Origin: a virus | Reading direction: 5' to 3' (one strand) | DNA: 64,000 nucleotides | IMG/VR virus record: IMGVR_UViG_3300025536_000015 | Shown: positions 16,007 through 36,652 of the stretch, in pieces | Layout: every line of letters starts with the position of its first letter | Position numbering within the stretch: the first letter of the stretch is position 1 | Made by a program: the position numbers and the translations under genes | The notes under the pieces: generated by a model | What the model was told of the DNA's origin: nothing | What the model saw: only the letters and a program-made list of their open reading frames with translations | The model's database searches: none

Positions 16007-16507
16007 ATGCCGAACGATAAAGCGCCGGACTACACGACGAAGACCACGCGGCCGTGGGGCCACTTCCGACTGCTCGACCAAGGCCCCGGCTTCATCGTCA
16101 AAGCCATGCTGGTCAAAGGCGAGCAGCGCCTGAGTCTGCAACGGCACACGCATCGCGAGGAGCGCTGGACCGTTGCCATGGGGAACGCGGTCGCCACTGT
16201 TTCAGGGGTGAAACACGCGCTCGCTGCCGGAGACTCGGTTGTGATCCCGCGTGGTGCCGCGCACCGCCTGGCCAACCCCGCCAAAGAGCCGCTCATGGTT
16301 GTCGAGGTCTGGCTCGGCAACGACCTGCGCGAGGACGACATCGAGCGCCTCGAGGACGACTACGGACGCGTCGAGTTCGCCAAAGGTGGCGTGATCAGTG
16401 GCCCCCCCAAAGACATCAAGATCGGCAACGGCGAGAAGGAGCACGTTGTCCCGCTCAAGGAGACGAAGCACATCGAAAAGCACCCTGGCGGAAGGAACTG
16501 GGAATGA
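16007..16507 (+). CDS. Mannose-6-phosphate isomerase type II (ManC C-terminal) cupin with extra C-terminal motif
   Basis: RPWG...LSLQRH.HREE.W...HRL.N...VEVW.G..L.EDDIERLEDDYGR. Confidence 0.88.
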   Translation: MPNDKAPDYTTKTTRPWGHFRLLDQGPGFIVKAMLVKGEQRLSLQRHTHREERWTVAMGNAVATVSGVKHALAAGDSVVIPRGAAHRLANPAKEPLMVVEVWLGNDLREDDIERLEDDYGRVEFAKGGVISGPPKDIKIGNGEKEHVVPLKETKHIEKHPGGRNWE

Positions 16508-16734
16508 ATCCCCCAGAGGATAGTCGCTTCCAGTACGCGCACGGCCTGGTCTGGGACCGCGAGACCGAGCAGGGCGTGCCGCGCGCCAAGAACAACCCGC
16601 CGTCCTGCGACCGCGTCGCGGCGCTTTCGTGCTGGACGCCGAAGCCAAGGGTGATGCACGTCTACCGCCTACCAAACGGCCAGCACGTCTGGCAATGGGA
16701 GCCGCAGCCTCCCGGCGGTCAATATGCCCGCTGA
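16504..16734 (+). CDS. Hypothetical protein
   Basis: ATGA-coupled ORF. Confidence 0.45.
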   Translation: MNPPEDSRFQYAHGLVWDRETEQGVPRAKNNPPSCDRVAALSCWTPKPRVMHVYRLPNGQHVWQWEPQPPGGQYAR

Positions 16735-17887
16735 TCTGCCAGACGACGCGATAAGAATCCGCAACCTCTACCCGGTCATGAAGTGCGACCGCTCGGTGTG
16801 GAAGCGGATCATTGCTCTCTGTCGGAAAGGCGACGAAGCCAGCGTGTCCGCGGCCGAGGACCTGGCCAAAGCTTGCACCTCGAGGACTACGCGAACGCGC
16901 GCGCTACACATCGGCGCTCTCCGCAAGCGCGTTATGCGCCGTGCCTTCCTAGTCCAGCAGAAGCGCGATGAGCATGTCACGGCGGACGCGCTGCGCACGC
17001 TGGCCGACCGCGCGGACACGATCTTAAACCGATACGGGAAAACCGGCGCCATTCCTTCGAACCGATATCCGTCGATCGTAAGAGACCTATCCGATCGGAA
17101 CAAAGAGGCCTACGCGACCATTGCTCAGGGCTTCCAGGCCGCTCTCCGGGCCGCCGTCAAAGTGGGCCTCTCCCACTCCATGCAGAACGCGGAGGCCGTT
17201 GTAGCCCACGCCAGAGGCAAAACCACTGAGCAGGAATGGGCTGACCTGGAGCTTGTGTACCGATCCGGCTGCTACGTCTACGTTCCGCTTGACGAGGCCG
17301 ACCCTCTGAACCAGCAACTGACCTACGCGCCGAGCAGCAACGTTTTCAAAAAGCTGTTCAAAGGCGCGCTCAAGGACACGATGACGGCAGGGCTGTTCGG
17401 CAAGAGCAAGCGCGTTTCGAGCAGGGTCTGGGACCTGCGCGGCCAGAACATGGCGCAGATGAAGCGACTCGTGTCCGGCGGCATCGCCCGCGGCGAAGAC
17501 CCGGCCACGATCAGCCGCGCCATTCGGGGCCTACTCGTCCAACCGAAGACCCTGCGCGGCGCGGCGCGCGCTGATGCGACGCCAGGCGCTGGTTCATACA
17601 GGTCAGCCTACGCCAACGCCATGCGCCTCACGCGCACCGAGACCAACCGCGCCTACATCCTATCCGACACGATCTTCGCCGACAAGAAGGGCTGGAATCT
17701 GATCTGGCAGGTCAGCGCCGGCCAGCGCGAGGAGGACGAGTGCGACGACTTGGGTGGCAAGGAGATGACCCCGGAGGAGTTCGCTGACAATTATCCGCAA
17801 CATCCGCAGTGCTTGTGCTATTCAATTCTCGCGCCGAAAACGGAGTTCGATAGCCCGCTTTCGGACACGCCGGCGGACCCCGAATGA
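16724..17887 (+). CDS. Head morphogenesis / minor capsid protein (SPP1 gp7, Mu gpF-like)
   Basis: RLTRTETNRAY...W...ECDDL...PQHPQCLC. Confidence 0.8.
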   Translation: MPADLPDDAIRIRNLYPVMKCDRSVWKRIIALCRKGDEASVSAAEDLAKACTSRTTRTRALHIGALRKRVMRRAFLVQQKRDEHVTADALRTLADRADTILNRYGKTGAIPSNRYPSIVRDLSDRNKEAYATIAQGFQAALRAAVKVGLSHSMQNAEAVVAHARGKTTEQEWADLELVYRSGCYVYVPLDEADPLNQQLTYAPSSNVFKKLFKGALKDTMTAGLFGKSKRVSSRVWDLRGQNMAQMKRLVSGGIARGEDPATISRAIRGLLVQPKTLRGAARADATPGAGSYRSAYANAMRLTRTETNRAYILSDTIFADKKGWNLIWQVSAGQREEDECDDLGGKEMTPEEFADNYPQHPQCLCYSILAPKTEFDSPLSDTPADPE

Positions 17888-17907
17888 TGCGTCAAAAAGC
17901 AGTCAGG

Positions 17908-18037
17908 TCTAATGGATTGGAAGTCGCATATACGCGAGTTCCAATGGGTTGGATATCCAATGGGTTGGACAAACAGTCCAATGGGTTGGATATTTCGCCG
18001 CCCCCTATAAGGTACTTAAAGACAATTTGTAAAGACA
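17908..18037. repeat. Second copy of origin elements: iterons TCCAATGGGTTGGA (17940, 17956, 17977; degenerate 17908) plus 35/37-nt copy of the AT-rich tract
   Basis: Iterons are the reverse complement of those at 555-604; 18001-18037 matches 615-651 in direct orientation. Confidence 0.88.
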
Positions 18038-18071
18038 TGGTAGACAACCGCCCCCGCTTTTTAGAAAAAAG

Positions 18072-18239
18072 ATGAACAACAGCATATGCCAAGTCAGCGG
18101 TAAGATCATGCACGCGACCGCAGCGGCTGCGCACCGCCATATTCCGCGGAGAGGCGGCAAGCGAGAACGCGGCACGGCCTACCGTTGCGGCTACTGCCAC
18201 CACTGGCATACGACCTCGAGCATGACATCTCGATCATGA
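18072..18239 (+). CDS. Small zinc-finger protein (not in ORF track)
   Basis: CQVSGK...AYRCGYCHHWHTTS. Confidence 0.55.
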   Translation: MNNSICQVSGKIMHATAAAAHRHIPRRGGKRERGTAYRCGYCHHWHTTSSMTSRS

Positions 18240-18240
18240 C

Positions 18241-18444
18241 ATGACCGGCTACGAGCGCGACCCGTTGGTCAAGTGCGCACGTCAGCGACCAGTGTGCGGC
18301 CACACTCGCCGCGAGCACGGCAATGGGAAATGCTTCGGCGTGACCTTCGCTGTTGGCGTGGCCGGCGACTGCCACTGCAAGGGGATGATGGAGCCGCCGG
18401 ACCCAGCGCGATTTGCACGCGAAGGCGAGAGAGTTGACGAGTGA
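18241..18444 (+). CDS. Small Cys/His-rich protein
   Basis: CGH...EH...C...C.C. Confidence 0.45.
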   Translation: MTGYERDPLVKCARQRPVCGHTRREHGNGKCFGVTFAVGVAGDCHCKGMMEPPDPARFAREGERVDE

Positions 18445-18458
18445 TGACAAAAATATAT

Positions 18459-18517: not shown

Positions 18518-19513
18518 ATGCGTGCGCTGATCACCGGAGCAAACGGATTCGTTGGTTCCCACCTCATTGAGCATCTGATTTCAATCGGCGCTGAAGTCCA
18601 CGGCACGATCAGATCATTCCGCAGTGACCTCTCCAACCTGGCGCACATCGATCCCGTCACGTATACGATTCATTTTTGTGACATCACCGACGAAGTGGCG
18701 ATCACTGATCTCGTCGCGCGATTGATGCCCACGCACATCTTTCACCTGGCCGCGCACTCCTACGTGCCGACGTCTTGGGACGCGCCGCACGCAACGATCG
18801 ACGCGAACATCAAAGGGACGCTAAATCTTCTTGAGGCGGTGCGCCGCAGCGCACCTGGGGCGCGAGTCCAGGTGGCCGGGTCCAGCGAGGAGTATGGCCG
18901 CGTCGAAGCGCACGAAGTACCCATCGCGGAATCGCAGCCGCTGCGCCCGCTCTCGCCTTACGGCGTGTCGAAGGTCGGGGCTGAGATGTTCGCGCTGCAA
19001 TACGCCGCCAGCTACAATTTACATGTGATCGTCACACGGTCGTTTAACCACACCGGCCCGCGCCGCGGGAAGGTCTTCGCCGAAAGCGACTGGGCGAGGC
19101 AGGTCGCGCTCATCGAGGCAGGCTTGCAAGAGCCTGCCATTATGCACGGAAATCTTGACGCGATCCGCGACTACACCGACGTCCGCGACATTGTGCGCGG
19201 CTACGTCATGGCGATCGACAACGGACAGACCGGTGAGGTCTACAATCTCTGCTCAGGATCCGATGCGTCCCCGACCATGCGCCAAGTTCTCGACAACCTC
19301 TGCGCGCTCGCGCACGTCAATGTGACGAAGGTGCAGGACCCGAAGCGCATGCGTCCGTCGGACGTTGCGCGTTTGGTCGGCAACGGGATGAAAGCCCGTC
19401 TTGCTTTTGGATGGGAGCCGAGCATTCCGCTTGCGCGAACTTTGGCCGACCTGCTACAGTATTGGCGATCGACACTGCACGCCACAGGGTCGAAGATTCC
19501 GGAGCCTGCTTAG
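18518..19513 (+). CDS. GDP-mannose 4,6-dehydratase/Rmd-like extended SDR
   Basis: GANGFVG, HLAAHSYV, GSSEEYG, YGVSK, FNHTGPRR, GNLDA.RDYTDVRD. Confidence 0.88.
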   Translation: MRALITGANGFVGSHLIEHLISIGAEVHGTIRSFRSDLSNLAHIDPVTYTIHFCDITDEVAITDLVARLMPTHIFHLAAHSYVPTSWDAPHATIDANIKGTLNLLEAVRRSAPGARVQVAGSSEEYGRVEAHEVPIAESQPLRPLSPYGVSKVGAEMFALQYAASYNLHVIVTRSFNHTGPRRGKVFAESDWARQVALIEAGLQEPAIMHGNLDAIRDYTDVRDIVRGYVMAIDNGQTGEVYNLCSGSDASPTMRQVLDNLCALAHVNVTKVQDPKRMRPSDVARLVGNGMKARLAFGWEPSIPLARTLADLLQYWRSTLHATGSKIPEPA

Positions 19514-19520: not shown

Positions 19521-20765
19521 GTGGCCAAACCTTTAGTCAAGACGTCGAAGAACAAGCTCGCCGACCAAGGCGTCTTCACGCTTTTCTTTGGCCTCAGCGA
19601 AGCGAAGACCGACGACTCCGCCGGCGACGACGGCAAGCCGAAGCACGAGATCGTGTTGACCGCTCTGCAGGAAGGGCGAGGAAACGAGCGCGACCGCCGC
19701 TACTACACGCGCGAAGCGGTCGTCGGCGCGGAAGGCGTCTTCAAGGCGCGCCGTAAACTTTTCGTCAACCACCTCGAGGAGGGCAAGCCGTCGTCCTCCG
19801 AGGACCTGCGCAACTGGTGTGCCACGCTCAAAGAGACCTGGATCGAAAACCTCCCGAGCGGGAAGGTCGCGCGCAAGGTGCGCCTTAAGATTCATGAGGA
19901 GTGGCTGTGGACGCGCTGCCTTGAGGCCCCCGAGGAAATCGCGCTGTCCATCGAAGGCAGCGGCGCCGGCAAAGAGGCCGTTGTTGAAGGCGAGACCTAC
20001 ATGGTCATCGAGAAGATTTGGTCGCTGAACGCCACGAAGTTCGTGACTTATCCCGGCAACGCAAAGATGGGGGCCGACCTCGTCGAAAGCGCCACCGAGG
20101 AATCTCCGGAGGAAACACCCATGGACCTGAAAGCTTTGACCGAAGCGCTCCTGAAGGAGCACCGCCCGGACCTCGTCGCCGCGATTGTCGCGAGCGTTGA
20201 GGCGTCGTACAAGGCCAAGCTGATCGAGGCCGAGGCCAAGGCGACGAAGATCGCCGAAGCTGCACCGACCCCCGCCACCTTCGCGGCCGCCGTTGCCGCC
20301 GAGGTCAAGGGCGTGAAAGATTCCTTCAACGCCTCTCTCGACGAGATGCGCAAGAAGCTCGACGAGTCCGACCGCAAGCTCGACGCCGCCGAGGTCAAGA
20401 CCCGCCTGGCCGAGAAGAAAGCCCTCATCGAGGCAAAGCTCAAGGAGTCCAAGCTGGCCCCCGAGGCGAAGACCGAGCGCTTCCTGGCTCGCTGCTACGC
20501 CGTCGCAGAGCGCAAAGAAGGCGACAAGGTCATCACCGTCGCCGAGCAGGTGGACGCCGAGATAGCCGAGCAGCTCAAGCTCACCACGTCCGAGTTCGGC
20601 GCGGTGCGCACCAGCGTCTCTGGCGAGACCAAGATCGCCGAGTCTGAAGTACTGACGGTTGAGGAGGAGCAAATCCTTTTCAACAACCGGGTGCTCGGAC
20701 ACGTTCTCACGCTCGAGCAGTTCCGCGAGCAGAAGAAGAAGGACGCCGCCGCAAAGACCGCGTAA
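19521..20765 (+). CDS. Prohead protease/scaffold fusion
   Basis: N-terminal protease-like region (RDRRYY...NHL...ALSI) followed by a long coiled coil; position before capsid genes. Confidence 0.7.
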   Translation: MAKPLVKTSKNKLADQGVFTLFFGLSEAKTDDSAGDDGKPKHEIVLTALQEGRGNERDRRYYTREAVVGAEGVFKARRKLFVNHLEEGKPSSSEDLRNWCATLKETWIENLPSGKVARKVRLKIHEEWLWTRCLEAPEEIALSIEGSGAGKEAVVEGETYMVIEKIWSLNATKFVTYPGNAKMGADLVESATEESPEETPMDLKALTEALLKEHRPDLVAAIVASVEASYKAKLIEAEAKATKIAEAAPTPATFAAAVAAEVKGVKDSFNASLDEMRKKLDESDRKLDAAEVKTRLAEKKALIEAKLKESKLAPEAKTERFLARCYAVAERKEGDKVITVAEQVDAEIAEQLKLTTSEFGAVRTSVSGETKIAESEVLTVEEEQILFNNRVLGHVLTLEQFREQKKKDAAAKTA

Positions 20766-20842: not shown

Positions 20843-21790
20843 ATGGCCCAGAAGAAAGAGAACCGCGCCTGCTCGGCGGACAGCATCCAACTCATCCCCA
20901 AGGCGTCGACCGACATCTCGTCGGGCGACGTCGTGGTCATGGCTCGCAAGAACGACCCGATCAGCCTCTCGGCTCTCGGGCCGGCCGGGCGCGTCAGCCC
21001 GATCGCCGCGGCCCGCCAGGGCCAGTGGTGCGTCGGCGTGGCCGATAACGTCTTCACCTCGGCCGTGGTCGGCGCGACGGACTACGCCACCCCGGACGCG
21101 GACAACAAGATCAACGTCCTGCGCGAGGGGCAGTTCTACCTAGCCCTCTCCACTGCGGCTGGCAAGGCCGGCGACGCGGTCGTCTACGCGTCCGGCGCGT
21201 CCGGCGCGCAGCTGTTCGCGATCGACAACATGCGCCAGGGCTATGCGGTGGCGCGCGTGGTCAGCGACTTCTCGGGCGCCTCGTCCGGCGACCTGCAGCT
21301 GTGCGAGTTGATCCTCAAGCCCACCGGCGGGCCTGACGTCGCGCACTGGCTCGAGAACCGAGTGGTCAACGGCTGCGAGGTCTTGCTGCACGCCGCGCCC
21401 GGATCGCAGGTTAAGGTCGGCCACAACACCGGCACGGTCGTCCATAAGAACCTCGTGCTGATCCAGAACGCCATCAAGTCGATCGCCCAGGACGTGACGC
21501 TCGCGTTCGGCGGCGTCGGCTCTGCAGCGGCGTCCACCATCCGGTTCAAGTGGGTCGTGGCGCGCTCCGGATCATTCGCCATCCGCTCCGGATCCGGAAG
21601 CAAAGCCGCGTTGGCCTCCTACACGGTGGCCGGCGTGACGGCGGGCCTGCTCGCGCCTGTCACGATGACTGCCGGGGAGATTCCGATCGCCCTGCTGATC
21701 CAGTTCAGCGCGGCAACCCAGTCGGCGGCGCGCATCAAGAACATCCGCGGCCTCGGCGTCGTGCCCCGCGTCGGTTCTTGGGGCATCTAA
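20843..21790 (+). CDS. Head decoration/cement protein (DUF2190-like) with C-terminal extension
   Basis: ISSGDVV...GVAD...REGQF...AGDAVVY; position after scaffold. Confidence 0.5.
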   Translation: MAQKKENRACSADSIQLIPKASTDISSGDVVVMARKNDPISLSALGPAGRVSPIAAARQGQWCVGVADNVFTSAVVGATDYATPDADNKINVLREGQFYLALSTAAGKAGDAVVYASGASGAQLFAIDNMRQGYAVARVVSDFSGASSGDLQLCELILKPTGGPDVAHWLENRVVNGCEVLLHAAPGSQVKVGHNTGTVVHKNLVLIQNAIKSIAQDVTLAFGGVGSAAASTIRFKWVVARSGSFAIRSGSGSKAALASYTVAGVTAGLLAPVTMTAGEIPIALLIQFSAATQSAARIKNIRGLGVVPRVGSWGI

Positions 21791-21874: not shown

Positions 21875-22861
21875 ATGTCTGATCTCTCCGAGAAGGCGAA
21901 GCAGGTGTCCTCGTTCATGGACTCGTGCGCCAACGAAAAGACGATCGAGGCGCGCGCCGATTCTTGGCTCGCCAACGTGACGGCCAATCGGCCTCACTTC
22001 CTCACCCCCAACCCGCCCCTGCTCGGCCTGACCGCCTTCGTGGTCGCGGCCGGCCCCTCTCTCCGCAAGAACGTCAAGGCGCTCAAGACCATCGGCCGCA
22101 TGGGCGTCATCGTATGCGTGGACGCCGCCTACCGATATCTGGTTGAGCAGGGCGTCACGCCCGACTACTGCGCCACGATTGACGCCGACACGCGCATGGT
22201 AACGATGATTGAAGGAGTGGATACGTCCAAGACTACTCTTGTCGCGCAAGCCTCCGCGAGCCCGGCCCTCATCAACGCGTGGCGCGGCCCGAAGTATTTC
22301 CTGCGCGCCACCGGCGGCTCTAGGGAGCTCGACGACAAGCTGCACGCGGCGCACCGAATCGTCAAGGCAAAGCGCGCCATGCTCCCCGGCGAGGAGATCG
22401 ACCCTGTCGCAGACGTCGAGGTGGTGTTTGCCGGCCTCAACGACGCGCTCGCCTGCGGCGGCAACGTGACGTCCTACGCGCATGTCTTCGCCCTCTCGCT
22501 GCTCCGGGCCACGAAGGTAGTCTTCGTCGGCGCCGACTACGCGTGGCTCGACGACAACGACTTCTACGCCGGCGGCGCCCACCAGAAGCTAGCCGCAGAG
22601 CGCATGTCCGGCGAACAGATTCTCTCCCACAGCGGCCTCGGCGGCGCAGAGAACGCGACGAACTTCACTCTCTTTCACCTGAAGTCGTGGCACGAGGAGA
22701 TCGCCTCCGCGCACCCCGGCCACTGCGTCAACGCGACCGAGGGCGGGATCTTGGGCGTCGGCAAGAAAGGCAACACCCTCGTTGGCTGGGAACACTTGTC
22801 TCTGGCGGACGCGGTCGCGAAGTATGCGCCCACCTGCGCGCGGGAAGCTGTCACGGCATGA
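21875..22861 (+). CDS. DUF115 (Maf/MptE-like) protein 1, putative nonulosonate transferase
   Basis: VAAGPSL, VCVDAA, PDY..TID, GGNV, VGADY, NATEGG. Confidence 0.8.
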   Translation: MSDLSEKAKQVSSFMDSCANEKTIEARADSWLANVTANRPHFLTPNPPLLGLTAFVVAAGPSLRKNVKALKTIGRMGVIVCVDAAYRYLVEQGVTPDYCATIDADTRMVTMIEGVDTSKTTLVAQASASPALINAWRGPKYFLRATGGSRELDDKLHAAHRIVKAKRAMLPGEEIDPVADVEVVFAGLNDALACGGNVTSYAHVFALSLLRATKVVFVGADYAWLDDNDFYAGGAHQKLAAERMSGEQILSHSGLGGAENATNFTLFHLKSWHEEIASAHPGHCVNATEGGILGVGKKGNTLVGWEHLSLADAVAKYAPTCAREAVTA

Positions 22862-23709
22862 GCCCCATGATCGCCCCTGACGTAAAAGAGGTCCTGGCCA
22901 ATCGTGGCCACGCATCTGCTGCGGCCCACAAGGACCGCTGGTCGCGTCACGCCGCGGCGAACAAGGGCCGAATTGTCTTCCAGGTGTCGCGCCTCTGGTG
23001 CGACGTCAACCCGAAGACCGGCGTGCTGATCGCCGCCGGCCCGAGCCTCAAGGACAGCCTCGCGGAGCTCAAGGCGATCGATAGGAACACGCACGAGATC
23101 GTGTGCGTCGACATGGCGCTCAAGTTCCTCCTCGACAACGGCTTGGTGCCCGACTACGTGATCTGCGCCGACGCCTCCGAGGAGATCGCGCGGACGCTGG
23201 TCGCGGCGCCTCCCGAGGTCGCGCTCTTGCTGAACGTCGTGGTCCACCCTGACACCGCGAAGGACTGGGTCGGCGACATCTTCTGGTTCTGCATGATGTC
23301 GAACTACCGCGACAAGGAAGCCAACGACTGGATGCAACACGACCACGCGAAGAAATCCGGAGTCTCCTCGTTTCTTGTCCCCGGCGGCAACGTCTCCAGC
23401 CTCGGCGTCAGCTTCCTCGGCTCCGTCCGGGCCGTTGCGAAGATACTGCTCTACGGACACGATTTTTGTTGGACCGACGACGCCGAGTTCTACGCGGGCG
23501 GCGTCCAGAAGGACCTGGCGGATATTCGCATCAAGACCGAAGCCGACGCAGGCACGGTCATGACTGTGCCCGACAGCCGCGGTAAGCCGGTGAAGACGAC
23601 GGGGAGCCTATTGGCGTTCGCGTCCTGGTACTCCGACATCGCCCGCACCATGCCCGGTCTGCTCGAGTCTCGCACGCCGACGACAATATTATCCCTCGGA
23701 GGAAACTGA
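22858..23709 (+). CDS. DUF115 (Maf/MptE-like) protein 2
   Basis: IAAGPSL, VCVDMA, PDYVICAD, GGNV, YGHDF. Confidence 0.78.
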   Translation: MSPMIAPDVKEVLANRGHASAAAHKDRWSRHAAANKGRIVFQVSRLWCDVNPKTGVLIAAGPSLKDSLAELKAIDRNTHEIVCVDMALKFLLDNGLVPDYVICADASEEIARTLVAAPPEVALLLNVVVHPDTAKDWVGDIFWFCMMSNYRDKEANDWMQHDHAKKSGVSSFLVPGGNVSSLGVSFLGSVRAVAKILLYGHDFCWTDDAEFYAGGVQKDLADIRIKTEADAGTVMTVPDSRGKPVKTTGSLLAFASWYSDIARTMPGLLESRTPTTILSLGGN

Positions 23710-24721: not shown

Positions 24722-24731
24722 ACGATCATAA

Positions 24732-24768: not shown

Positions 24769-24825
24769 GATGTCGTATAAAAGTCGCTCGTTCGCAACAT
24801 CTCAAAAACAAGGAGCAACACGCCA

Positions 24826-25290: not shown

Positions 25291-25293
25291 GGC

Positions 25294-26054: not shown

Positions 26055-26055
26055 A

Positions 26056-28819: not shown

Positions 28820-29067
28820 TCAAGAAAATAGTCGGACGACTGCTCGGAACGGACCGGCCGTCGCCGAACTACTACCACGAGTGCATGGTCCAGTCGGGCG
28901 CCGATAAGTTCGGACGCTTTCCCTGGACCGTCCGCGTGTACGGACGCGTCGGCTCCGGGCCTGTTGAAGTTTTGGAAGGGTTCGAGGTATCGCACGAGAA
29001 GGCCAAGAAGGTGGCCTACGCAGCAGCCGTTAAGGTCGTGAAGGCCAAGGAGGCCGCATGGCGATAG
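28816..29067 (+). CDS. Hypothetical protein
   Basis: ATGA-coupled ORF. Confidence 0.5.
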   Translation: MIKKIVGRLLGTDRPSPNYYHECMVQSGADKFGRFPWTVRVYGRVGSGPVEVLEGFEVSHEKAKKVAYAAAVKVVKAKEAAWR

Positions 29068-29459
29068 GATACGCGACGACGCTGCGCAACGCACGGCTCG
29101 ACCAGATCAAGACGGCGATCGACGCAGGGGCCGGGGCTGGCCTACTGCGCTTCTATGACGGGTCTCGACCGGCCACCGGCGGCGCCGCCACTACGCTGCT
29201 CGCCGAACTGACCATGTCGGATCCGTCCGCTGGCGCGGCCTCTGGCGGTGTTCTAACTCTCAGCGCCATCACGGCAGACTCGAGCGCGAACGCGACCGGC
29301 ACTGCGACGTGGGCGCGCATCGTAGACTCGACCGGGGCCTTCGTCCTCGACTGCTCCGTCGGCACGTCTGGCGCGGACATCAACCTTAACAGCGTGGCCA
29401 TTCAGGTCGGCGCGCAGGTTAGCATCACGAGTGCTACGATCACTGAGGGGAATCCATAA
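29058..29459 (+). CDS. Conserved phage virion-type protein
   Basis: RNARLD...LRFYDG.RPA...LLAEL...ATGTATWARI pattern of phage structural proteins. Confidence 0.65.
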   Translation: MAIGYATTLRNARLDQIKTAIDAGAGAGLLRFYDGSRPATGGAATTLLAELTMSDPSAGAASGGVLTLSAITADSSANATGTATWARIVDSTGAFVLDCSVGTSGADINLNSVAIQVGAQVSITSATITEGNP

Positions 29460-30140
29460 ATGGCTGCTCCTATCGACGCAATAATCACACTGCCGGATGA
29501 TTCTGGCAACACCGGAAAGAAAGTCAGAACGCAGACCGAGGTCGTCGGAGCCAACACTGTTCATACGCATTACTTCGTGATGCAGAGGGCGAAGAAGGTC
29601 ATCACGACATATCGACTCGCGCTCGTCCAGGCGACCGTTCTTGCGTCTGCGCAGAACGGAACGACGGCCGGAATGCTGTTCGGTCACATGGGCTCTGCTG
29701 TCAGCGGCAAGGCGATGAGGATTCGAAGGATCGGCGTGTCCTCTCAGCACTCAACTGCTCTTGCCACGCCGACGGCACCGCGCCTCCTCATCCGACGATT
29801 CACATCATCCGGGGCGCTCAACACGTCGTTGATTTCCCCAAACACAAACGACTCAACGCAGACTGCTCCCGCTGCGCTGTTCTCGTTGGTGAACACTGGA
29901 TGCACCGTAGTTCATGTCGGAATAGGCTTTGCCCATGCAGCTCTCGCTGGTGCTATAACCGCCGTTGGTGCCTACGAGCCGTGCGATAAGGACATGATTG
30001 ACCCAGCGGCAGAAGAAGACGCGTGGCCAGTATTCCGTCCTGGCGAGGGCTTCGTGATATACCAGGACGTAGCCGGGACTACCTCGGACACGCGCAAGTT
30101 CAATATCGAGATCAGTTGTGATGAGATCGACATCGCCTGA
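29460..30140 (+). CDS. Hypothetical beta-rich virion-type protein
   Basis: Coupled ORF; lower GC than neighbours. Confidence 0.6.
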   Translation: MAAPIDAIITLPDDSGNTGKKVRTQTEVVGANTVHTHYFVMQRAKKVITTYRLALVQATVLASAQNGTTAGMLFGHMGSAVSGKAMRIRRIGVSSQHSTALATPTAPRLLIRRFTSSGALNTSLISPNTNDSTQTAPAALFSLVNTGCTVVHVGIGFAHAALAGAITAVGAYEPCDKDMIDPAAEEDAWPVFRPGEGFVIYQDVAGTTSDTRKFNIEISCDEIDIA

Positions 30141-30143
30141 TGA

Positions 30144-31073
30144 ATGGCCTGGGAACTAAACGACGTCGCGCCGGTATCGATTGGGCAAGAGTTCTCAGCC
30201 CCTGCATCGCCGTGGACGGAGCAGGGGTGGTTCCTCGGCTACTCCATGCCAACCGGAGGAGCCCCGCCAATTACCGGCACGTTGGCGGTGTCTCTGGCAG
30301 CCGACACGTCATCGGCGTCTGGCAAGGAAATATTTACCGGATCAGCGGCACCGACATTATCCCCAGACGTCATGGCCGGAGTCGGGAAAGAGGTCTTCTC
30401 TGGGAGCGCTTCGGCTACTTCAGCCGGCGACTCCTCGGCAGTGGTCGGCAAGTTGAATTTCACAGGCACGTCCGCGCAGACGGAAACAGCGGATGCAATG
30501 GCTGCTACCGGGACCGCTGGCTCGAGCTTCGACGGAACATTAGAGGTTACGAACGACGACGACGCACAAGCAGCGTCCGGGTTGCTGCTGTTCTCAGGGA
30601 CCGCGTCGACGTCGTCTGCGAACGACGCGATGGCCGCCGCAGGAGTGATGAGCTTCTCCGGTTCTTCCGGTCCCACCTTGGGCGCGGACGTGTTGGAGGC
30701 GACAGCTCAACTAAACTTTGCTGGGGCGGAATCGCCGGCGACAGCATCAGACATCTCGTCGGCCTCTGGCCTCTTGACGTTCTCAGGATCGGCGGCGGTC
30801 GCATGCGCTGGGGACGCGCTGACGGCTTCGGGCTTGCAAAGATTTATCGGTGCATTCTCGACAACGAACGAGCCAGACGTTCTGTCGCTGTCCGCGGAGC
30901 TTGGGTTCCGAGGTCCGATGTCCGTGACGCTTTTGTCAGACACGCCGACGGCTGCAGGAAAGGAAGACTTCGTCGGCGTGATGTCCACGACGATGCAGAA
31001 CGACAGCGGCTACAAGCAAGGCATGGTGATCCGCTACAACACCATCATGAACCCGGTGTCGCCTTCAGACTGA
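30144..31073 (+). CDS. 21-aa repeat, Ser/Thr/Ala-rich fibre-like protein
   Basis: About 12 tandem repeats F-x-G-x8-D-x5-G. Confidence 0.7.
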   Translation: MAWELNDVAPVSIGQEFSAPASPWTEQGWFLGYSMPTGGAPPITGTLAVSLAADTSSASGKEIFTGSAAPTLSPDVMAGVGKEVFSGSASATSAGDSSAVVGKLNFTGTSAQTETADAMAATGTAGSSFDGTLEVTNDDDAQAASGLLLFSGTASTSSANDAMAAAGVMSFSGSSGPTLGADVLEATAQLNFAGAESPATASDISSASGLLTFSGSAAVACAGDALTASGLQRFIGAFSTTNEPDVLSLSAELGFRGPMSVTLLSDTPTAAGKEDFVGVMSTTMQNDSGYKQGMVIRYNTIMNPVSPSD

Positions 31074-31074
31074 T

Positions 31075-31296
31075 ATGAGAAAAAAGAGATTGACCTTCGA
31101 GCAGAAACGGGCGTTGTCGATTCAGCGTCAGGCGCGCATCGGCATCACCATCCTGGCGGTGTTGGTGGTCACGTTTATTTACACCGTTCTGTTCAGCGTG
31201 CCGCGAGAACAAGAACCAATGCTATTATTTCCGCCAGGCACGAAAGTGAATCTTGGATTTGGAAAATATCAAACAGGAGGTCATGCTCGCCCATGA
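31075..31296 (+). CDS. Small membrane protein
   Basis: Basic N-terminus plus one transmembrane helix. Confidence 0.55.
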   Translation: MRKKRLTFEQKRALSIQRQARIGITILAVLVVTFIYTVLFSVPREQEPMLLFPPGTKVNLGFGKYQTGGHARP

Positions 31297-31976
31297 CTAC
31301 AAAGAAGAAGTCGTCAAAGTCTGTCACCGCAACGCTCGAGCAGCCGAAGGCCGGCGTGCTGGCCAAAGAGCACGAGGAGCGAATCGACATCGAGCGCACC
31401 GACATTTATCCCGAGGATATGATCAAGCGCCACCGCGAGCGCTACTGCTGGTCAATCTCAGAAATCTCCAAGCGCTTCTGCCGCGCTGGACGCGTACTCG
31501 ACGCAGCTTGTGGGACAGGGTACGGATCAAGCCTGCTCCTCGGCATCTCGAACAAAGTCGTTGGACTTGACGGCGACCACGGAGCTCTTGACCACGCGCG
31601 CAAGCGCTTCGGCGGATCGCTCCTGTCCTTCCGTTGGTCAGACCTGAACCATACTATCGCTGGTAACACCGAGGAGTTCGACGCGGCCGTGACCATCGAA
31701 ACGATCGAGCACTTGCCCGAGGAAGGCGCTCAGTTCTTCCTCTCTGAGCTTCACCGAGTCATCGCCAAGAACGGCCTGCTCCTTATCTCCACGCCAGAAT
31801 TTAACGCCGAGCGCGGCCTGACGTCCACGTTTCACCTGAAAGAGTACACGCCGAATGAGATGATCGCGCTCGTCACGGCGGCCGGATTTGTTGACGTGGT
31901 GCTCTCCGATGCAACGAACATCTGGGTGAAAGACTTGCCCGGCTTCATCTTCCTCAGCGCACGGAAGCCAGGATGA
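31293..31976 (+). CDS. Class I SAM-dependent methyltransferase (type common in glycan clusters)
   Basis: HRERY, VLDAACGTGYGS, ETIEH, LLISTP. Confidence 0.85.
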   Translation: MTTKKKSSKSVTATLEQPKAGVLAKEHEERIDIERTDIYPEDMIKRHRERYCWSISEISKRFCRAGRVLDAACGTGYGSSLLLGISNKVVGLDGDHGALDHARKRFGGSLLSFRWSDLNHTIAGNTEEFDAAVTIETIEHLPEEGAQFFLSELHRVIAKNGLLLISTPEFNAERGLTSTFHLKEYTPNEMIALVTAAGFVDVVLSDATNIWVKDLPGFIFLSARKPG

Positions 31977-33118
31977 GCCGCATTCCACAAGCGGCGCCGG
32001 CCGCCATCGAGATATTTGGCAAGAAGGTCGGCAACGAAGCTGTAACCTTTGCGCAGGCTTCGAACGCTGGCGCGCACCCGTGCCTGATCGTGGCCGAGTG
32101 CGGCATCAACCACGGCGGGGACACGGCCCGCGCCATGGACATGGTCCGCGCCGCGGCCGACGCCGGCGTGGACGTTGTGAAATTCCAGCGGCGCGACCTA
32201 CAGGCGACCTACACGCCCGAGGCGTTCGCCGACCCCAACCGCGCGGCGCACGGCCTGGCCCACTACCTGCCCGTGCTGAAGCAGACGCAGTTGCCGGACA
32301 AGGACTATCCCAGGCTGAAGGCGCTGGCCGAGGCCTTGGGCCTGGGCTTCTTGGTCACTCCGTTCGACGAGCCGTCCGTCGACTTCCTCGAGGCGCTCTG
32401 CGTCGATGCCTACAAGGTGGCGTCGTGCGACTTCAACAACCCGTTCCTGCACGCGAAGATCGCGGCGACCGGAAAGCCGGTGATCGTGTCGACAGGCATG
32501 CAACACGAGATCGCGCTGTTCGAAGTGATCCCGACGCTGAAGGAGATGTTCCCCGGCCGGCTCGCGCTTATGCACACGGTGTCGAGCTACCCAACGGCCT
32601 TCCGCGACTGCCAGCTGCACAGCATCCTGCGCATGAAGATCAACCACGGCGTCCCCGTCGGCTGGTCCGGCCACGAGCGCGGTGTCGCCGTCAGCACCTC
32701 GGCGGCTGCGCTGGGCGCAGACATCATCGAGCGCCACTTCACGCTCGACCGGACCCTGCCCGGCCCCGACCAAGCGGCCTCGCTCGAGCCGGACGGCCTC
32801 AAGAAGCTCGTGGAGCGGATCCGCGCGACCGAGGACGCCTACGGGGACCCGTACTCCACGAAGGTGCCGACGCGCGGCGAGGCGCAGACGCAGGAGATCC
32901 TCGGCAAGAGCCTCTGCGCGCGGCGCGACATCAAGGCCGGTGAGCCCGTCACCATGGACATGCTCGAGGCGAGGTCCCCCGGCCGCGGCCTGTCGCCGTT
33001 CCTCGCCACCTACCTCGTCCGAACGCACGCAGTTATGGCGCGCGACGTCGCGGCCGGTGTACACTTAAGCGCGCAGGACATCGACAAGAAGGTGACGGTG
33101 GGGGCCGGCCCATGCTGA
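31973..33118 (+). CDS. neuB: NeuB-family nonulosonic acid synthase with C-terminal SAF domain
   Basis: IVAECGINHGG, DVVKFQ, YKVAS, STGM, GWSGHE, IERHFTLD..LPGPDQAASLEP. Confidence 0.92.
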   Translation: MSRIPQAAPAAIEIFGKKVGNEAVTFAQASNAGAHPCLIVAECGINHGGDTARAMDMVRAAADAGVDVVKFQRRDLQATYTPEAFADPNRAAHGLAHYLPVLKQTQLPDKDYPRLKALAEALGLGFLVTPFDEPSVDFLEALCVDAYKVASCDFNNPFLHAKIAATGKPVIVSTGMQHEIALFEVIPTLKEMFPGRLALMHTVSSYPTAFRDCQLHSILRMKINHGVPVGWSGHERGVAVSTSAAALGADIIERHFTLDRTLPGPDQAASLEPDGLKKLVERIRATEDAYGDPYSTKVPTRGEAQTQEILGKSLCARRDIKAGEPVTMDMLEARSPGRGLSPFLATYLVRTHAVMARDVAAGVHLSAQDIDKKVTVGAGPC

Positions 33119-33206
33119 CCGACCAAAACAATTTGTCCCGTTCCTCCGGACTGTGGGGGCGTGCCCACGGCGAGGAGGGGCGGGGCATTCGTTTTATGGT
33201 GACGCG

Positions 33207-34028
33207 ATGCTGAACGTTCGCGGCATTAAGGCGCGCCCGCGTGACCTGCACGAGATGATGGCGCACAAGCCGTCGCTCGTCGAGATGCACTGCTCCGTAG
33301 ACGACCTGCTCTGGACGCCGCCGAGCACCTACGACGCGCCGCTCGCCGTCCACCTGCCTGAGTACGACAAAGGCGACCTGGTTGACGCAGCAAGCCTCAA
33401 CGAAACCAAGCGACGCGCGGCGGAAGACCTCTACTGCATGGCTGTCCGCAAAGCCGTCCAGTGGGCTCCGCATTTCGCGAATTGCAAACCGAAAATTGTC
33501 TTCCACCCTGGCGGCATGGACGTCGACGTGTTCACGCAGTCGCAGATAGACGACGCTCGCTCTCAGCTTGGCAGGACGATCGAGTCCATGGTCGCGGCTG
33601 CCGGCAACGAGGCCGACATCCTCATCGAGAACGTGCCTCGCCACTGCTGGTTCTTTGGCGGTGACTGGATCGCCAACCTCGGCGTGGACGTAAAACAGAT
33701 GGCCGAGATTTGCACCACTCACAAGATCGGCATGACCCTCGACCTCTGCCACCTCTACCTCGCGTCGCAGGCGATGAAGTTCGACGTCTCCGAAGCTGTT
33801 TCACTGGTGAAAGAACACGTTCGTCACATACACTATTCAGGAGCGAAGGGCATGGACGGTGAGGGCCTGGCGATCGACGACCCGGCCAACACCTTCGACC
33901 TTGGCTCTGAGCTCCAACGGCTGCGAGACATCGACGCCGTGGCGGTGCCAGAGATATGGTTCGGGCACGAGAACGGCGGTGCCGGCTTCGTGAAGGCGTG
34001 GGCGTCGGCGGAACAGGCACTCGGATAA
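33207..34028 (+). CDS. Xylose-isomerase/AP-endonuclease-2-like TIM barrel protein
   Basis: VEMH, VHLPE, HPGG, IENVP, TLDLCH, HIHYSGAKG..GEGL, PEIWFGH. Confidence 0.75.
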   Translation: MLNVRGIKARPRDLHEMMAHKPSLVEMHCSVDDLLWTPPSTYDAPLAVHLPEYDKGDLVDAASLNETKRRAAEDLYCMAVRKAVQWAPHFANCKPKIVFHPGGMDVDVFTQSQIDDARSQLGRTIESMVAAAGNEADILIENVPRHCWFFGGDWIANLGVDVKQMAEICTTHKIGMTLDLCHLYLASQAMKFDVSEAVSLVKEHVRHIHYSGAKGMDGEGLAIDDPANTFDLGSELQRLRDIDAVAVPEIWFGHENGGAGFVKAWASAEQALG

Positions 34029-34032
34029 AACT

Positions 34033-34320
34033 ATGGCAGAGCTAACCCAGACGGAGCTCGAAGACAAGATCAGCGCGATCGACACCGCGATCGCTGCCGG
34101 CGTCACTGCACTGTCCAGCGCCACGGAGTCGGCGGCTTGGGTCGACTACACGATGGGCGACAAGTCCGTCAGTGCGTCACAGAAGCTGGCGCAACTCCAA
34201 GAACTCCGCAAGATGTACCAGGGCATGCTCGACGTCTACCCGAAGGAGATCACGCGCAACGCGAGCTATGACGTGGACCGCGACGGCACGGACAACTCGG
34301 ACCTCGAGGGCGATCAGTGA
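34033..34320 (+). CDS. Head-tail connector / head completion protein
   Basis: DYTMGDKSV...LQELRKMY (gpW-like); first gene of the neck block. Confidence 0.55.
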   Translation: MAELTQTELEDKISAIDTAIAAGVTALSSATESAAWVDYTMGDKSVSASQKLAQLQELRKMYQGMLDVYPKEITRNASYDVDRDGTDNSDLEGDQ

Positions 34321-34679
34321 GCGTCGCCCAGGACACGGTCTCCATCCTCGCCGTCTGGGGCCAGACCGTGACCATCATGCGCAAGACGCCGACTTTTTCC
34401 GATAGTGGCGCGCCGACTCCTGTCTGGGCATCCGTTGGGACGGCCACAGCCGACATCCAGCCGATCGACGGAAGCGAGAAGCGGATCGAACTCGGCGAGC
34501 GCGTGCTGACCACGCACGAAATCTATTTCCCCAACGGGACCGACATCCGCGGAGGCGACCGCGTGCAGCCTGCTGGCTGGGCCGCCGGCGACGACGAGTA
34601 CGAGGTCCGCGCGCTCATCGCTGAGACACCGAGCCACGTCCGCGTCAACGCGACGCTCGTCCGGGGGCACGGTGGCTGA
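34317..34679 (+). CDS. Head closure / head-tail adaptor
   Basis: ADIQP, THEIYFP..TDIRGGDRV. Confidence 0.7.
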   Translation: MSVAQDTVSILAVWGQTVTIMRKTPTFSDSGAPTPVWASVGTATADIQPIDGSEKRIELGERVLTTHEIYFPNGTDIRGGDRVQPAGWAAGDDEYEVRALIAETPSHVRVNATLVRGHGG

Positions 34680-35166
34680 CGGGTTCCAGATTTCTGTGAC
34701 AGCGAAGAACCTCAAGTTCGACAAGTATGCCTTGTCTGCCGAGGACTTAATTATTGACGCGATCGACGTGACCATCGGCGAGGTCCAGGCCCACATCCGC
34801 GACGGCCACCCTAAGGTGAACAAGCTGACCTTAAAACGAACGCGCGGCGATCGCGACTCGCTCGACACCTACCGCGTGCGCACCGGCGGCGAGGTCGGCG
34901 AGTTCCGCGGAATGATGCGCTGGCTCACACATACCGGAGTGTCGCGCAATTCGGTCTTCCTGGTGCAGGCCAAAGTCTCAGGCACCGGCTTCACGCGGAG
35001 CATCTCCGGCAAGGTCTACAGCGCGCAGAAGCACATGAATGATTTGGAGTTCGGCACGGCCGGCCGGCGCGCCTTCCCAGCCTTCCGGCCAGCTCTGATC
35101 GCCAAGGGACCGCGAGGGCAGTACCTAGTCCGCGAAGCACTCCTACGGGCGGCGGCGCGCTTGTGA
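34672..35166 (+). CDS. HK97 gp10-like neck protein
   Basis: LEFGT...FPAFRPAL. Confidence 0.65.
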   Translation: MADGFQISVTAKNLKFDKYALSAEDLIIDAIDVTIGEVQAHIRDGHPKVNKLTLKRTRGDRDSLDTYRVRTGGEVGEFRGMMRWLTHTGVSRNSVFLVQAKVSGTGFTRSISGKVYSAQKHMNDLEFGTAGRRAFPAFRPALIAKGPRGQYLVREALLRAAARL

Positions 35167-35627
35167 AGGTCCTTAAGGAGATGGTCCATAAGGCCATGCG
35201 TGACGACGCGACCTTGCGCACGCTTCTGGCCCACGCGGCCACGCCATACGGCGTCTACGAGGGCCACTTCCCAACCACGCCTGACTTCAGCGCGGCGGCC
35301 GGCGCGGCCCGTTCCTACGTCACCTGGATGTTCATCGGGGGCGGCGGCGACGGATCGACCAACGGGCCTGAGATGCGCCTTGGAGAAAAGGTTTTCACCG
35401 TGACCGCGTGGAGCGCCAACCCAGACACCGTCGAGTCAGCGCACAAGCGGATCCGGCGCCTACTCACCGACCTCTACGGCTGCACGCTCCCGACGACCGA
35501 CGCAAACGTGACCGGCCTCAAGCCTGAGCCAGGCGGCTACGGCCCGGACCTGTTCGACGACGAGGCCAAGGCGTACTTCCGATCAGAGACCTACCGCGTC
35601 TGGTACCGCGAGGACGTCACCTCATGA
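35163..35627 (+). CDS. Tail terminator-like protein
   Basis: Position and size; D..L..L start; fourth gene of neck block. Confidence 0.55.
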   Translation: MKVLKEMVHKAMRDDATLRTLLAHAATPYGVYEGHFPTTPDFSAAAGAARSYVTWMFIGGGGDGSTNGPEMRLGEKVFTVTAWSANPDTVESAHKRIRRLLTDLYGCTLPTTDANVTGLKPEPGGYGPDLFDDEAKAYFRSETYRVWYREDVTS

Positions 35628-36652
35628 GCGAAGTGGCCGCAGAAGTCAACAAGGACGAGGAGATCGAGCGCGGCCTCGAGCGCATGCACGCCATGGGCGT
35701 CGAGGTAAAGACGCTCAAGCACCCGCTCATCGTCGACCGCAACTGGGAGGCCGAACAGGAGATGCAGGGATGGGTCGGCCCCTACATGCGCAACATCGCC
35801 TGGCACTACCACGACATCCTGGCCGCCGGCCACATCGGCCCCCTGCTCAACAGGCTCGGCGGCCGCCCCGTTGCCGTGGTCGGCGCTGGCGCGAGCCTGG
35901 ACAAGAACGTGGACAGCTTGCGAGACTTCCCAGGCATCATCATCGCGTGCGACCGAGCGGCGAAGGCGCTCACGGCGCGGGACATTTGTCCGGACATTGT
36001 GGTCGCCGTGGACCCGCGGCCATACCACATCGCTAAGATGCTGGACTACCCGCAGAGTAAGGGCCAGACGCTCGTCGCGTCCGTCTGCTTGCACCCAGAC
36101 GTGGTCCAAGCCTGGCGCGGCCGCGTGCGCTACATGAGCCATGAGAACCCAGGCACGCAGTTCTTCGACCACGGCCTGCCGCATCTGTTCCCCGGCATGC
36201 CAGCGCTCTACTGCCTAGGAAACGTCGGGAACATGGCCGTGCAGCTTGCGGCGGAGATGGGGGCCGGAAAGATCGTCCTAGTCGGTCAGGACTACGGCTA
36301 CACCGACGGCAAGATGAGCGCCGACGACTGGGTCTACCAGCATCAATCGATGTTCTTGGAAAGCGGCTGGCGGCGCGAAGTGCCCGACCACGCCTACAAC
36401 CTCGAGCGGCGCACAGGCAAGGTGATGACGAAAGGCATCGACGGTGAGGTGCAGACCTACGCACCGTTCCTCGGCTATCGTGATTCTCTTTATAACATCG
36501 TGAAACTTTGGAATCTCGACGTGGTCAACGCGACGGAGGGCGGCATCCTAGTCGACCTTCCGCAGATGGCCCTGTCAAAAGTCGTAACAAGCCTGTTACA
36601 ATTTAACGCCGGGGAGGCACGCACCCTCCTTAGTCAGGCGCTCGGGGGATAA
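35624..36652 (+). CDS. DUF115 (Maf/MptE-like) protein 3
   Basis: VVGAGASLDKN, IACDRA, PDIVVAVDP, GNVGN, VGQDYG, NATEGG. Confidence 0.82.
   Translation: MSEVAAEVNKDEEIERGLERMHAMGVEVKTLKHPLIVDRNWEAEQEMQGWVGPYMRNIAWHYHDILAAGHIGPLLNRLGGRPVAVVGAGASLDKNVDSLRDFPGIIIACDRAAKALTARDICPDIVVAVDPRPYHIAKMLDYPQSKGQTLVASVCLHPDVVQAWRGRVRYMSHENPGTQFFDHGLPHLFPGMPALYCLGNVGNMAVQLAAEMGAGKIVLVGQDYGYTDGKMSADDWVYQHQSMFLESGWRREVPDHAYNLERRTGKVMTKGIDGEVQTYAPFLGYRDSLYNIVKLWNLDVVNATEGGILVDLPQMALSKVVTSLLQFNAGEARTLLSQALGG

Follow-up and report, generated by a model that had tools for sequence, protein, structure and literature searches.

The closest described relatives of the transferases discussed here are the bacterial Maf proteins, among them Magnetospirillum magneticum Maf (5MU5), Aeromonas caviae Maf1, Clostridium botulinum Maf and the Shewanella proteins Maf-1 and Maf-2/GlfM. 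Some mycobacteriophages offer a second point of reference, and their virion glycosyltransferases are conventional enzymes that draw on sugars of the host. In the Cluster F1 mycobacteriophages, for example, two putative glycosyltransferases are encoded beside the capsid gene and capsid glycosylation has been inferred (PMC11256854). Flagellin specificity is conferred on Maf-1 by its C-terminal tetratricopeptide (TPR) domain (PMC11339370), and Maf-2 requires a separate factor, GlfM (bioRxiv 10.1101/2023.12.03.569772). Here we analyse a 64,000-nucleotide stretch of viral DNA (IMG/VR record IMGVR_UViG_3300025536_000015, henceforth the window), in which genes predicted to make and activate a nonulosonate and three genes for small Maf-like proteins of the DUF115 family (PF01973) lie among the head, neck and tail genes of an uncultured phage (positions 16007-36652). 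An earlier note on this DNA had placed ten sugar genes among the structural genes; all ten are real and lie at, or at most 54 nucleotides (nt) from, the positions first assigned to them. Gene context leads us to favour, at slightly better than an even chance, a cytoplasmic system that O-glycosylates head and tail-tube proteins with a nonulosonate made by the phage itself.

The three DUF115 genes occupy positions 21875-22861 (DUF115a, alternative start 21851; PF01973, E 1.3e-24), 22858-23709 (DUF115b; E 9.3e-21) and 35624-36652 (DUF115c; E 2.3e-31), on the plus strand like all convincing genes of the window. They encode proteins of 283-342 residues with a central MAF_flag10/PF01973 domain, which we call mini-Mafs. 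A model of DUF115c built from an alignment of 30 relatives (predicted local distance difference test, pLDDT, 91.7) was subjected to an exhaustive structural comparison. Maf 5MU5 came first (Z 25.0, root-mean-square deviation 3.1, 253 residues, chain positions 237-530), followed by MptE 8SD5 (Z 15.1, 195 residues), SteA in third place and sialyltransferases of families GT29/GT42 (Z 8-9.5). By sequence profile, DUF115c matched 5MU5 with an E of 1e-7 and MptE with 7e-5. The phage proteins correspond to the central domain of Maf with a short N-terminal helical extension, and are devoid of the N- and C-terminal Maf domains. DUF115a and DUF115b are both clear homologues of DUF115c (hhalign probability 99.8% for DUF115a against the DUF115c family).

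These comparisons bear on whether the DUF115 proteins are glycosyltransferases at all. They could instead be MptE-like kinases or pyrophosphokinases, or assembly factors, with the sugar acid put to some other use or the sugar genes serving as metabolic helpers. PF01973 does include MptE and SteA, the Asp of the 'ADGA' motif occurs in MptE and the phage proteins alike, DUF115a and DUF115b match MptE slightly better than Maf by sequence profile, and some complete phages carry DUF115 without NeuB. On the other side, the DUF115c model is far nearer to Maf than to MptE, pterin and thiamine genes are absent from the phage, DUF115 co-occurs with NeuB and a CMP-transferase in this phage and in the viral contigs L016 and L022, and it is hard to see what three paralogous kinases would do next to structural genes. 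We give this alternative very little chance, and the MptE pterin kinase that the earlier note had named as a threat to its own proposal is disfavoured by the same structural comparison and by the lack of pterin genes nearby. A control scan of 14 model genomes with PF01973 returned matches in archaea only.

The mini-Maf genes are wedged between structural genes. DUF115a follows the gene for a cement/decoration-like protein (20843-21790; Phage_cement, E 0.008, below cut-off), for which the Atlas gives Phage_cement_2 and DUF2190 clusters as neighbours in features and in structure. DUF115b precedes the major capsid protein (MCP) gene (23711-24721; Phage_capsid_4, E 3.2e-13, with matches to Mu-like_gpT and PHROG major head families). 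DUF115c precedes the major tail (tube) protein gene (36654-37409; phrog_807, E 6.8e-11; relatives match PF27730 and YomU_Tube). The claim that most of the sugar genes are translationally coupled to neighbours was borne out by junction analysis, in which seven of the ten showed a 4-nt overlap or a spacing of 1-4 nt on at least one side. Overlaps of 4 nt join DUF115a to DUF115b, the CMP-transferase gene to the radical S-adenosylmethionine (SAM) gene, the methyltransferase gene to neuB and the last connector gene to DUF115c; gaps of a single nucleotide separate DUF115b from the capsid gene, the CMP-transferase gene from the gene upstream of it and DUF115c from the tube gene. The gene for the short-chain dehydrogenase/reductase (SDR) lies 7 nt from the next gene and is uncoupled on its upstream side, where it follows a 630-nt stretch, and the cupin gene stands alone, uncoupled. 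The GC content of the cassette is that of the remaining genome, and promoter or terminator signals inside it do not rise above chance, so the cassette does not look like a recent insertion.

The same arrangement recurs in other phages. We compared contexts from Hainich groundwater (L002, L003 and L005), Logan (L004/L006, L008 and P0028) and IMG/VR (L010-L014, L023, L024 and L028); the IMG/VR relatives were retrieved with an alignment query, single-protein queries having returned none, and an IMG/VR scan with the tube alignment yielded only contigs already known. The shared order is cement, DUF115a, DUF115b, capsid, three small open reading frames (ORFs), CMP-transferase, radical SAM enzyme, methyltransferase, NeuB, TIM barrel, connectors, DUF115c and tube. 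It was seen in about ten distinct metagenomic contigs with MCP identity down to 34%, and because these contigs are independent the arrangement is not due to chance. The synteny survey of viral metagenomes that the earlier note had called for thus finds the cassette order well beyond the window.

A quick IQ-TREE analysis of 45 DUF115 proteins (midpoint-rooted, SH-aLRT support) resolved DUF115a, DUF115b and DUF115c as separate clades (support 96, 100 and 99), with a and b as sisters (99). Orthologues are 34-78% identical and paralogues 21-29%; long cellular Mafs (480-695 residues) are placed elsewhere in the tree. Each clade is tied to its own neighbour: DUF115a stands after the cement gene, DUF115c before the tube gene, and DUF115b before the MCP gene wherever the locus extends to it. 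In one contig the gene order has changed, and a DUF115 gene stands after the tube gene (L015, 3697-5593). In a sister clade of about 43-45-kb phages (L054:10001-11915 and L055:10001-11897), a single DUF115c-like gene directly follows the tube gene and precedes chaperone-like ORFs and the tape measure gene. These phages are 28-32% identical to the present phage in the tube protein and 26% in the portal, and neither NeuB nor a CMP-transferase was found in their structural block. From the sequences, the link between DUF115 and the tube gene appears to be older than the cassette.

This distribution also speaks to another idea, in which all three DUF115 proteins share a single acceptor, perhaps a head fibre or the cement protein, instead of serving one virion protein each; they would modify it one after another, or extend the sugar acid into an oligomer or polymer in the manner of a polysialyltransferase. 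In favour of it, the fold is related to that of sialyltransferases (Z 8-9.5, as above), DUF115a and DUF115b form a tandem overlapping pair in which the motifs of b are degenerate, and a Ser/Thr-rich repeat protein is encoded inside the cassette of the present phage. Against it, DUF115c is separated from the a/b pair by 12 kb and invariably adjoins the tube gene, in the sister clade the tube gene is accompanied by DUF115c only, and the repeat protein is not conserved in relatives. We regard such chain-building as unlikely, if slightly less so than a role outside glycosyl transfer.

DUF115 is also found outside complete cassettes. The genomes of two complete phages of about 44 kb, L030 (IMG/VR, terminal repeats, 100% complete) and L026, encode DUF115 proteins of 336-351 residues and contain no NeuB anywhere; in L030 (5943-11706) the DUF115 gene lies 3 kb downstream of the major head gene and has an overlap with one for a SAM methyltransferase. 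Such phages must use a CMP-sugar of the host or some other donor. As a separate observation, a distant DUF115 (25% identity) in L009 (259-11254) is coupled to very large ORFs of 730, 954 (CBM_5_12), 1082 and more than 2159 residues, possibly fibre-like proteins of another phage.

Two enzymes point to a nonulosonate as the probable donor. The NeuB-type synthase (31973-33118; PF03102, E 2.7e-69, 233.7 bits) aligns along its length with Neisseria meningitidis NeuB 4IPI (E 2.6e-40), keeps the GINH, SxH and ERHFT motifs and has a C-terminal SAF domain (E 5.6e-5). On NCBIfam it scores 280.7 bits with NeuB_NnaB (cut-off 399.65) and 210.9 bits with PseI (cut-off 340.25). The NeuA/PseF-like CMP-transferase (26056-26811; CTP_transf_3, PF02348, E 3.4e-19, 69.9 bits) has PseF as its best NCBIfam match (120.6 bits, below the cut-off of 205.7), with KdsB models at 38 bits or less, and among solved structures it comes closest to the CMP-Neu5Ac synthetase 6IFD (E 2e-23), KdsB structures following at E 3e-6 or weaker. 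The proposal that the phage makes and activates a nonulosonate fits these homologies, in that the NeuB motifs are kept and the CMP-transferase is nearest to CMP-sialate and PseF enzymes.

The other conserved enzymes suggest how this sugar acid may be prepared and decorated. The TIM-barrel protein (33207-34028, alternative start 33153; AP_endonuc_2, E 3.1e-10) yielded a model of pLDDT 95.7 whose best structural match is the D-tagatose 3-epimerase-like 3WQO (Z 26.6, 239 residues), followed by other ketose or sugar epimerases and isomerases and by endonuclease IV; judged by this model, it resembles a ketose 3-epimerase or sugar isomerase. The earlier note had called the product of 26808-28448 a B12 radical SAM enzyme. 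The radical SAM core is secure (Radical_SAM, E 5.6e-12; the CxxxCxxC core reads CPYACKFC at residues 251-258), and the B12-binding part gives an E of only 0.0098 here, with a solid PF02310 match in the 51%-identical orthologue of L004. Its top NCBIfam matches are all B12-type radical SAM methyltransferases, all weak, and no solved relative was found by sequence; the enzyme is probably a cobalamin-dependent methyltransferase. A phosphonate pathway, raised by weak radical SAM matches of the P-methyltransferase type, was rejected, as no PEP mutase occurs among the Pfam-scanned ORFs. A further SAM methyltransferase is encoded at 31293-31976 (Methyltransf_11, E 1.7e-13; Methyltransf_25, E about 1e-13).

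Two further sugar genes lie upstream of the cement gene. The GDP-sugar SDR (18518-19513; GDP_Man_Dehyd, E 6e-77) was correctly named in the earlier note and can be narrowed to an Rmd-like enzyme: its best solved relative is Rmd 2PK3 (GDP-6-deoxy-D-lyxo-4-hexulose reductase; E 2e-76, 260.6 bits, residues 1-318), versus 109-144 bits for Gmd structures (best 143.9). It is predicted to be of the GDP-4-keto-6-deoxy-D-mannose reductase type, the stereochemistry of the reduction aside. The cupin (16007-16507; PF01050, MannoseP_isomer, E 7e-30) matches the last 110 positions of GMP_PMI (TIGR01479), the mannose-6-phosphate isomerase end of the bifunctional GMP/PMI. By tblastn, no cupin homologue occurs in the related loci, the gene being seen in the present phage only; the SDR is found in L005 and L006 but not in L023 and L024. 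With the cupin unique and the SDR patchy, the conserved core comprises NeuB, the TIM barrel, the CMP-transferase, the radical SAM enzyme, the methyltransferase and the three DUF115 proteins. Of the ten-gene sugar system first proposed, these eight genes stand as its conserved part and the other two are accessory. No signal peptide or membrane segment was found in the cassette enzymes, which all look soluble, and the ORFs scanned include no aminotransferase, acetyltransferase or hydrolysing 2-epimerase. The gene set would fit a non-aminated, manno-derived, probably methylated nonulosonate, which with Rmd could be a 9-deoxy sugar.

Based on the gene identities, folds, coupling and conserved order that we observe, we propose the following route, in which the donor sugar, the transferase activity and the acceptors, like any benefit to the phage, are inferred from them. 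Late in infection the phage would make a nine-carbon 2-keto-3-deoxy sugar acid, NeuB condensing phosphoenolpyruvate (PEP) with a manno-type hexose that is probably prepared by the TIM-barrel epimerase or isomerase. In the present phage the cupin and the Rmd-like reductase may also supply the hexose, which would suggest mannose or 6-deoxy-mannose as the starting sugar and hence a non-aminated acid resembling Kdn. The sugar acid would be activated by the CMP-transferase and probably methylated by the radical SAM enzyme and the SAM methyltransferase. Still in the cytoplasm, and no later than particle assembly, the three soluble mini-Mafs would then move the sugar from CMP to Ser/Thr residues of virion proteins, with the tail tube protein as the substrate of DUF115c and the cement protein, the major capsid protein or both as substrates of DUF115a and DUF115b. 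The mini-Mafs would have exchanged the flagellin-binding modules of Maf for another way of finding their acceptors.

The tube protein is the leading candidate acceptor. Its central residues 86-155 form a conserved stretch rich in Ser/Thr, and 18 columns of this segment are at least 80% Ser/Thr across 11 orthologues, a pattern that is suggestive of an acceptor region. The cement protein and the major capsid protein are further candidates. A predicted complex of DUF115c with the tube protein scored 0.00 in both runs, which were made without controls, and this counts neither for nor against an interaction. The fuller proposal, of a phage lineage with three mini-Mafs that each tag a different virion protein (cement, major capsid or tail tube) with a methylated, non-aminated and possibly 9-deoxy nonulosonate, is tentative, and we think it somewhat more apt to be wrong in some part than right in all.

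The setting in which the cassette operates was assessed from the phage contig and the genome bin in which it was found. The phage comes from a subsurface/groundwater metagenome, where it forms a 65.6-kb contig (C72). Window positions 1-55764 equal C72 9886-65649, and the remainder resumes at the start of C72 (junction 55764/55765); this continuation, together with a 58-nt overlap of the contig ends, marks the assembly as circular and not as a segment of a chromosome. Only about 1.6 kb of the complete phage genome lies outside the window. Its GC content is 0.59-0.65 throughout. The gene set includes small and large terminase, portal, MuF-like minor head, major capsid, head completion and major tail proteins, and further an Amidase_2 lysin, a replication O-like protein, a helicase, RecT, a nuclease and three DNA methylases. 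No tyrosine or serine recombinase/integrase and no flagellin gene is present on the contig. The phage is probably a virulent, uncultured tailed phage of long-tail (siphophage-like) gene order, and a prophage or lysogenic conversion was rejected for a circular contig without an integrase.

C72 was binned within a 3.09-Mb bacterial genome (247 contigs, 94% complete). Two of the three DNA methyltransferase genes (1723-3165, 61433-62554 and 62551-63999; two of the N6/N4 type, one C5), namely those at 61433-62554 and 62551-63999, are 70-75% identical at the nucleotide level to genes on bin contigs C211, C69 and C98. This similarity is the sole sequence link between phage and bin: no spacer-like match ties the contig to the bin, and the tetranucleotide correlation of contig and bin is 0.87, versus 0.98-0.99 for host contigs. 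With the methylase similarity alone and a differing tetranucleotide profile, the bin is named as host on binning alone. An Atlas query with RpoB yielded no taxa. It contains no NeuB or DUF115 of its own, has two flagellin genes (Flagellin_N matches on C128 and C79 only) and encodes a true Gmd, a possible source of the Rmd substrate.

Several observations weigh against virion glycosylation as set out above, which is predicted from gene context. Flagellin is the sole proven acceptor of Maf enzymes (PMC4065374; bioRxiv 10.1101/2020.06.03.131540), and the bin has its two flagellin genes, the phage-bin link itself resting on the binning described. DUF115a and DUF115b are no nearer to Maf than to MptE by sequence profile; the phage DUF115 proteins have an Asp at the 'acDRA' position like MptE, where long cellular Mafs including 5MU5 have Gly-Thr; and the C-terminal NATEGGIL motif of DUF115b is degenerate, so that this protein may be non-catalytic. 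Neither NeuB nor the CMP-transferase reaches the NCBIfam equivalog cut-offs, and the pathway is incomplete on paper, as the cassette holds neither an enzyme that frees the hexose from the GDP-sugar nor a phosphatase. Finally, because complete phages carry a head-module DUF115 without NeuB, the transferase is not strictly tied to a phage-made sugar.

The flagellin points would be accommodated if the cassette modified a host structure (flagellin, pilin, S-layer or envelope glycans), thereby blocking superinfection or stopping progeny from sticking to debris; a host with flagellins but no NeuB or Maf of its own is what the bin offers. The mini-Mafs, however, come without the flagellin-binding Maf domains and partner proteins, the three paralogues have held their places next to the cement, capsid and tube genes over deep divergence and even after reordering, the genes sit in the late operon coupled to structural genes, and lysogenic conversion is unlikely without an integrase. 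A moron-like host-conversion cassette is argued against by the same facts: three paralogues long kept, fixed adjacency and coupling, a tube link that survives reordering and no integrase. We consider a host target improbable, though the least so of the alternatives weighed here. DNA hypermodification was rejected, since the genes lie in the structural operon and not in the replication module. The virion as target, which the earlier note had proposed, is strengthened by the conserved adjacency and by the loss of the outer Maf domains, to which acceptor specificity has been traced in the single case tested, Maf-1; its suggestion that the coat serves mimicry gains no support, given a bin without NeuB or DUF115.

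The remaining genes of the operon complete the picture of a head-to-tail module. TerL (11816-13519) and portal (13535-15253) precede the cupin gene, and a MuF-like minor head protein (16724-17887) follows it. In the 630-nt gap between the MuF-like and SDR genes lie four 17-nt palindromic units, TCCAATGGGTTGGATAT (17908-17993), a promoter-like site (17966-17994) and, 3' of the palindromes, an AT-rich segment (about 18001-18070), then two small Cys-rich ORFs (all these features within 17908-18450). Because the palindromes, the AT-rich segment and the promoter-like site precede the SDR gene, the late region may comprise more than one transcription unit. The SDR gene is followed by that of a scaffold-like protein (19521-20765), an N-terminal domain and then a long Ala/Glu/Lys-rich helical region, which has no Pfam or PHROG match and is kept at the same position in L005, L006, L023, L024 and L028. 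As a side observation, the MuF-like homologue of L005 (2506-4173) has 555 residues and carries PT-HINT and Hint_2 domains, which suggests an intein in a head gene.

Downstream of the capsid gene, three small basic ORFs (24826-25290, 25294-25695 and about 25692-26054) without Pfam or PHROG family matches are conserved in L002 at 50-68% identity. Behind the radical SAM gene follows a variable insert of about 2.7 kb (28445-31073), absent from L002, L004 and L008, which encodes a virion structural protein (29058-29459; phrog_3758, E 5e-33), a 226-residue ORF and the Ser/Thr-rich repeat protein. The latter (30144-31073) is acidic, with 24.6% Ser plus Thr, a net charge of -22 and degenerate repeats of about 21 residues beneath which no tandem DNA repeat was found; it is possibly a fibre and an extra acceptor. 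An ORF at 30140-31078 was rejected as a gene, being an Arg-rich frame that overlaps the true one. In two relatives (L010:1944-3035 and L012:2774-3859) about 1.1 kb of extra DNA surrounds the methyltransferase gene, between those for the radical SAM enzyme and NeuB. As this extra DNA sits where the insert sits here, the site looks like a hot spot for gene gain. Four head-tail connector genes (34033-35627; phrog_501 head closure) with mutual overlaps of 4-8 nt, including that for a head completion protein (34317-34679; Phage_HCP, E 7e-7), lead to DUF115c. The neck genes had been described as pushed about 9 kb from the capsid gene by sugar genes: the distance holds, at 9.3 kb (24721 to 34033), but part of it is taken up by the three small conserved ORFs and the insert. 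In the early region, the window also encodes a strong match to DUF5131 (3688-4668; E 6e-95) and a PNKP-type HAD phosphatase (7073-7798; E 6e-20).

Full-text literature searches returned no phage-encoded NeuB/Maf system and no report of a nonulosonate on phage particles, in agreement with the earlier note, to whose author no described NeuB/NeuA/Maf system in a tailed phage was known, and phages go unmentioned in a large phylogeny of nonulosonate synthases. Among cultured phages, a megablast search with the whole region and a tblastn search with DUF115c returned nothing, and NeuB gave three distant matches only; the closest cultured phages are the Roseobacter phages CRP-901 and CRP-902, with about 32% identity in TerL and 28% in MCP. 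DUF115c is rare: 5.8 billion proteins include about 30 close relatives, every one of them from a metagenome, and in a set of 1.84 billion representatives it forms about eight clusters at 50% identity. No close relative was found in 400 genomes of the bin's order or in a species-genome collection, where the best match is 35% identical. We read this locus as probable Maf-type nonulosonate O-glycosylation moved to a virus, with new presumed acceptors. It is set apart by having three paralogues, one of which is tied to the tube gene, by its cobalamin-type radical SAM enzyme and by a donor pathway that lacks amination genes.

If the proposal is true, the virion proteins would be the first non-flagellin acceptors of the Maf family and the particle the first phage particle coated with a nonulosonate, and the sugar may be new, as the unusual donor pathway may yield a nonulosonate not yet described. 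Phages would then coat heads and tails with acidic, sialic-acid-like sugars of their own making, which may affect particle stability, sticking to surfaces and debris, recognition by defence systems and grazers, and host binding. The pairs DUF115c/tube and DUF115b/capsid can be tested directly in Escherichia coli without phage culture, and compact transferases of 280-340 residues with defined acceptors would be attractive tools for glyco-engineering.

How, then, does the locus compare with what is known? With the archaeal 6-hydroxymethyl-7,8-dihydropterin pyrophosphokinase MptE (8SD5), the phage proteins have in common PF01973, the core fold, the GxGPS loop and the 'ADGA' Asp. Unlike the phage proteins and Maf, MptE, with about 230 residues, is without the C-terminal subdomain common to both, and the phage provides three paralogues beside structural genes in place of a pterin pathway context. 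Bacterial Mafs share with the mini-Mafs the central catalytic PF01973 domain, for which 5MU5 is the best structural match to DUF115c, the company of a NeuB-type synthase and a CMP-transferase, a soluble, cytoplasmic nature and, by analogy, the presumed chemistry of transfer from a CMP-sugar onto Ser/Thr. Whereas bacterial Mafs are proteins of about 600-700 residues with three domains (PMC11339370), the phage proteins are half that size, without the N-terminal Rossmann-like and C-terminal helical/TPR domains, and, unlike Maf-2, no GlfM-like partner was recognised. They also differ in being encoded by a virus, with capsid, cement and tail tube genes as neighbours in place of a flagellin locus, and in having Asp instead of Gly at the 'scGTA' position.

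With the bacterial pathways to CMP-nonulosonates (NeuBAC for Neu5Ac, LegB-I/F, PseB-I/F and Kdn), the phage has a NeuB-family synthase and a CTP_transf_3 enzyme in common, and its SDR of the GDP-sugar class matches LegB/Gmd-like models. It differs from them in lacking the aminotransferase, the N-acetyltransferase and the hydrolysing 2-epimerase (NeuC, LegG, PseG), in that no phage enzyme reaches an equivalog cut-off, and in adding a TIM-barrel epimerase-like enzyme, a cobalamin-type radical SAM enzyme and a methyltransferase. The mycobacteriophages cited, like the present phage, encode their own transferases beside structural genes, and in both cases the proposed outcome is a capsid or tail coated with glycans. 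Unlike them, the present phage combines a transferase resembling Maf and the sialyltransferases with its own predicted pathway to a CMP-activated nine-carbon sugar acid.

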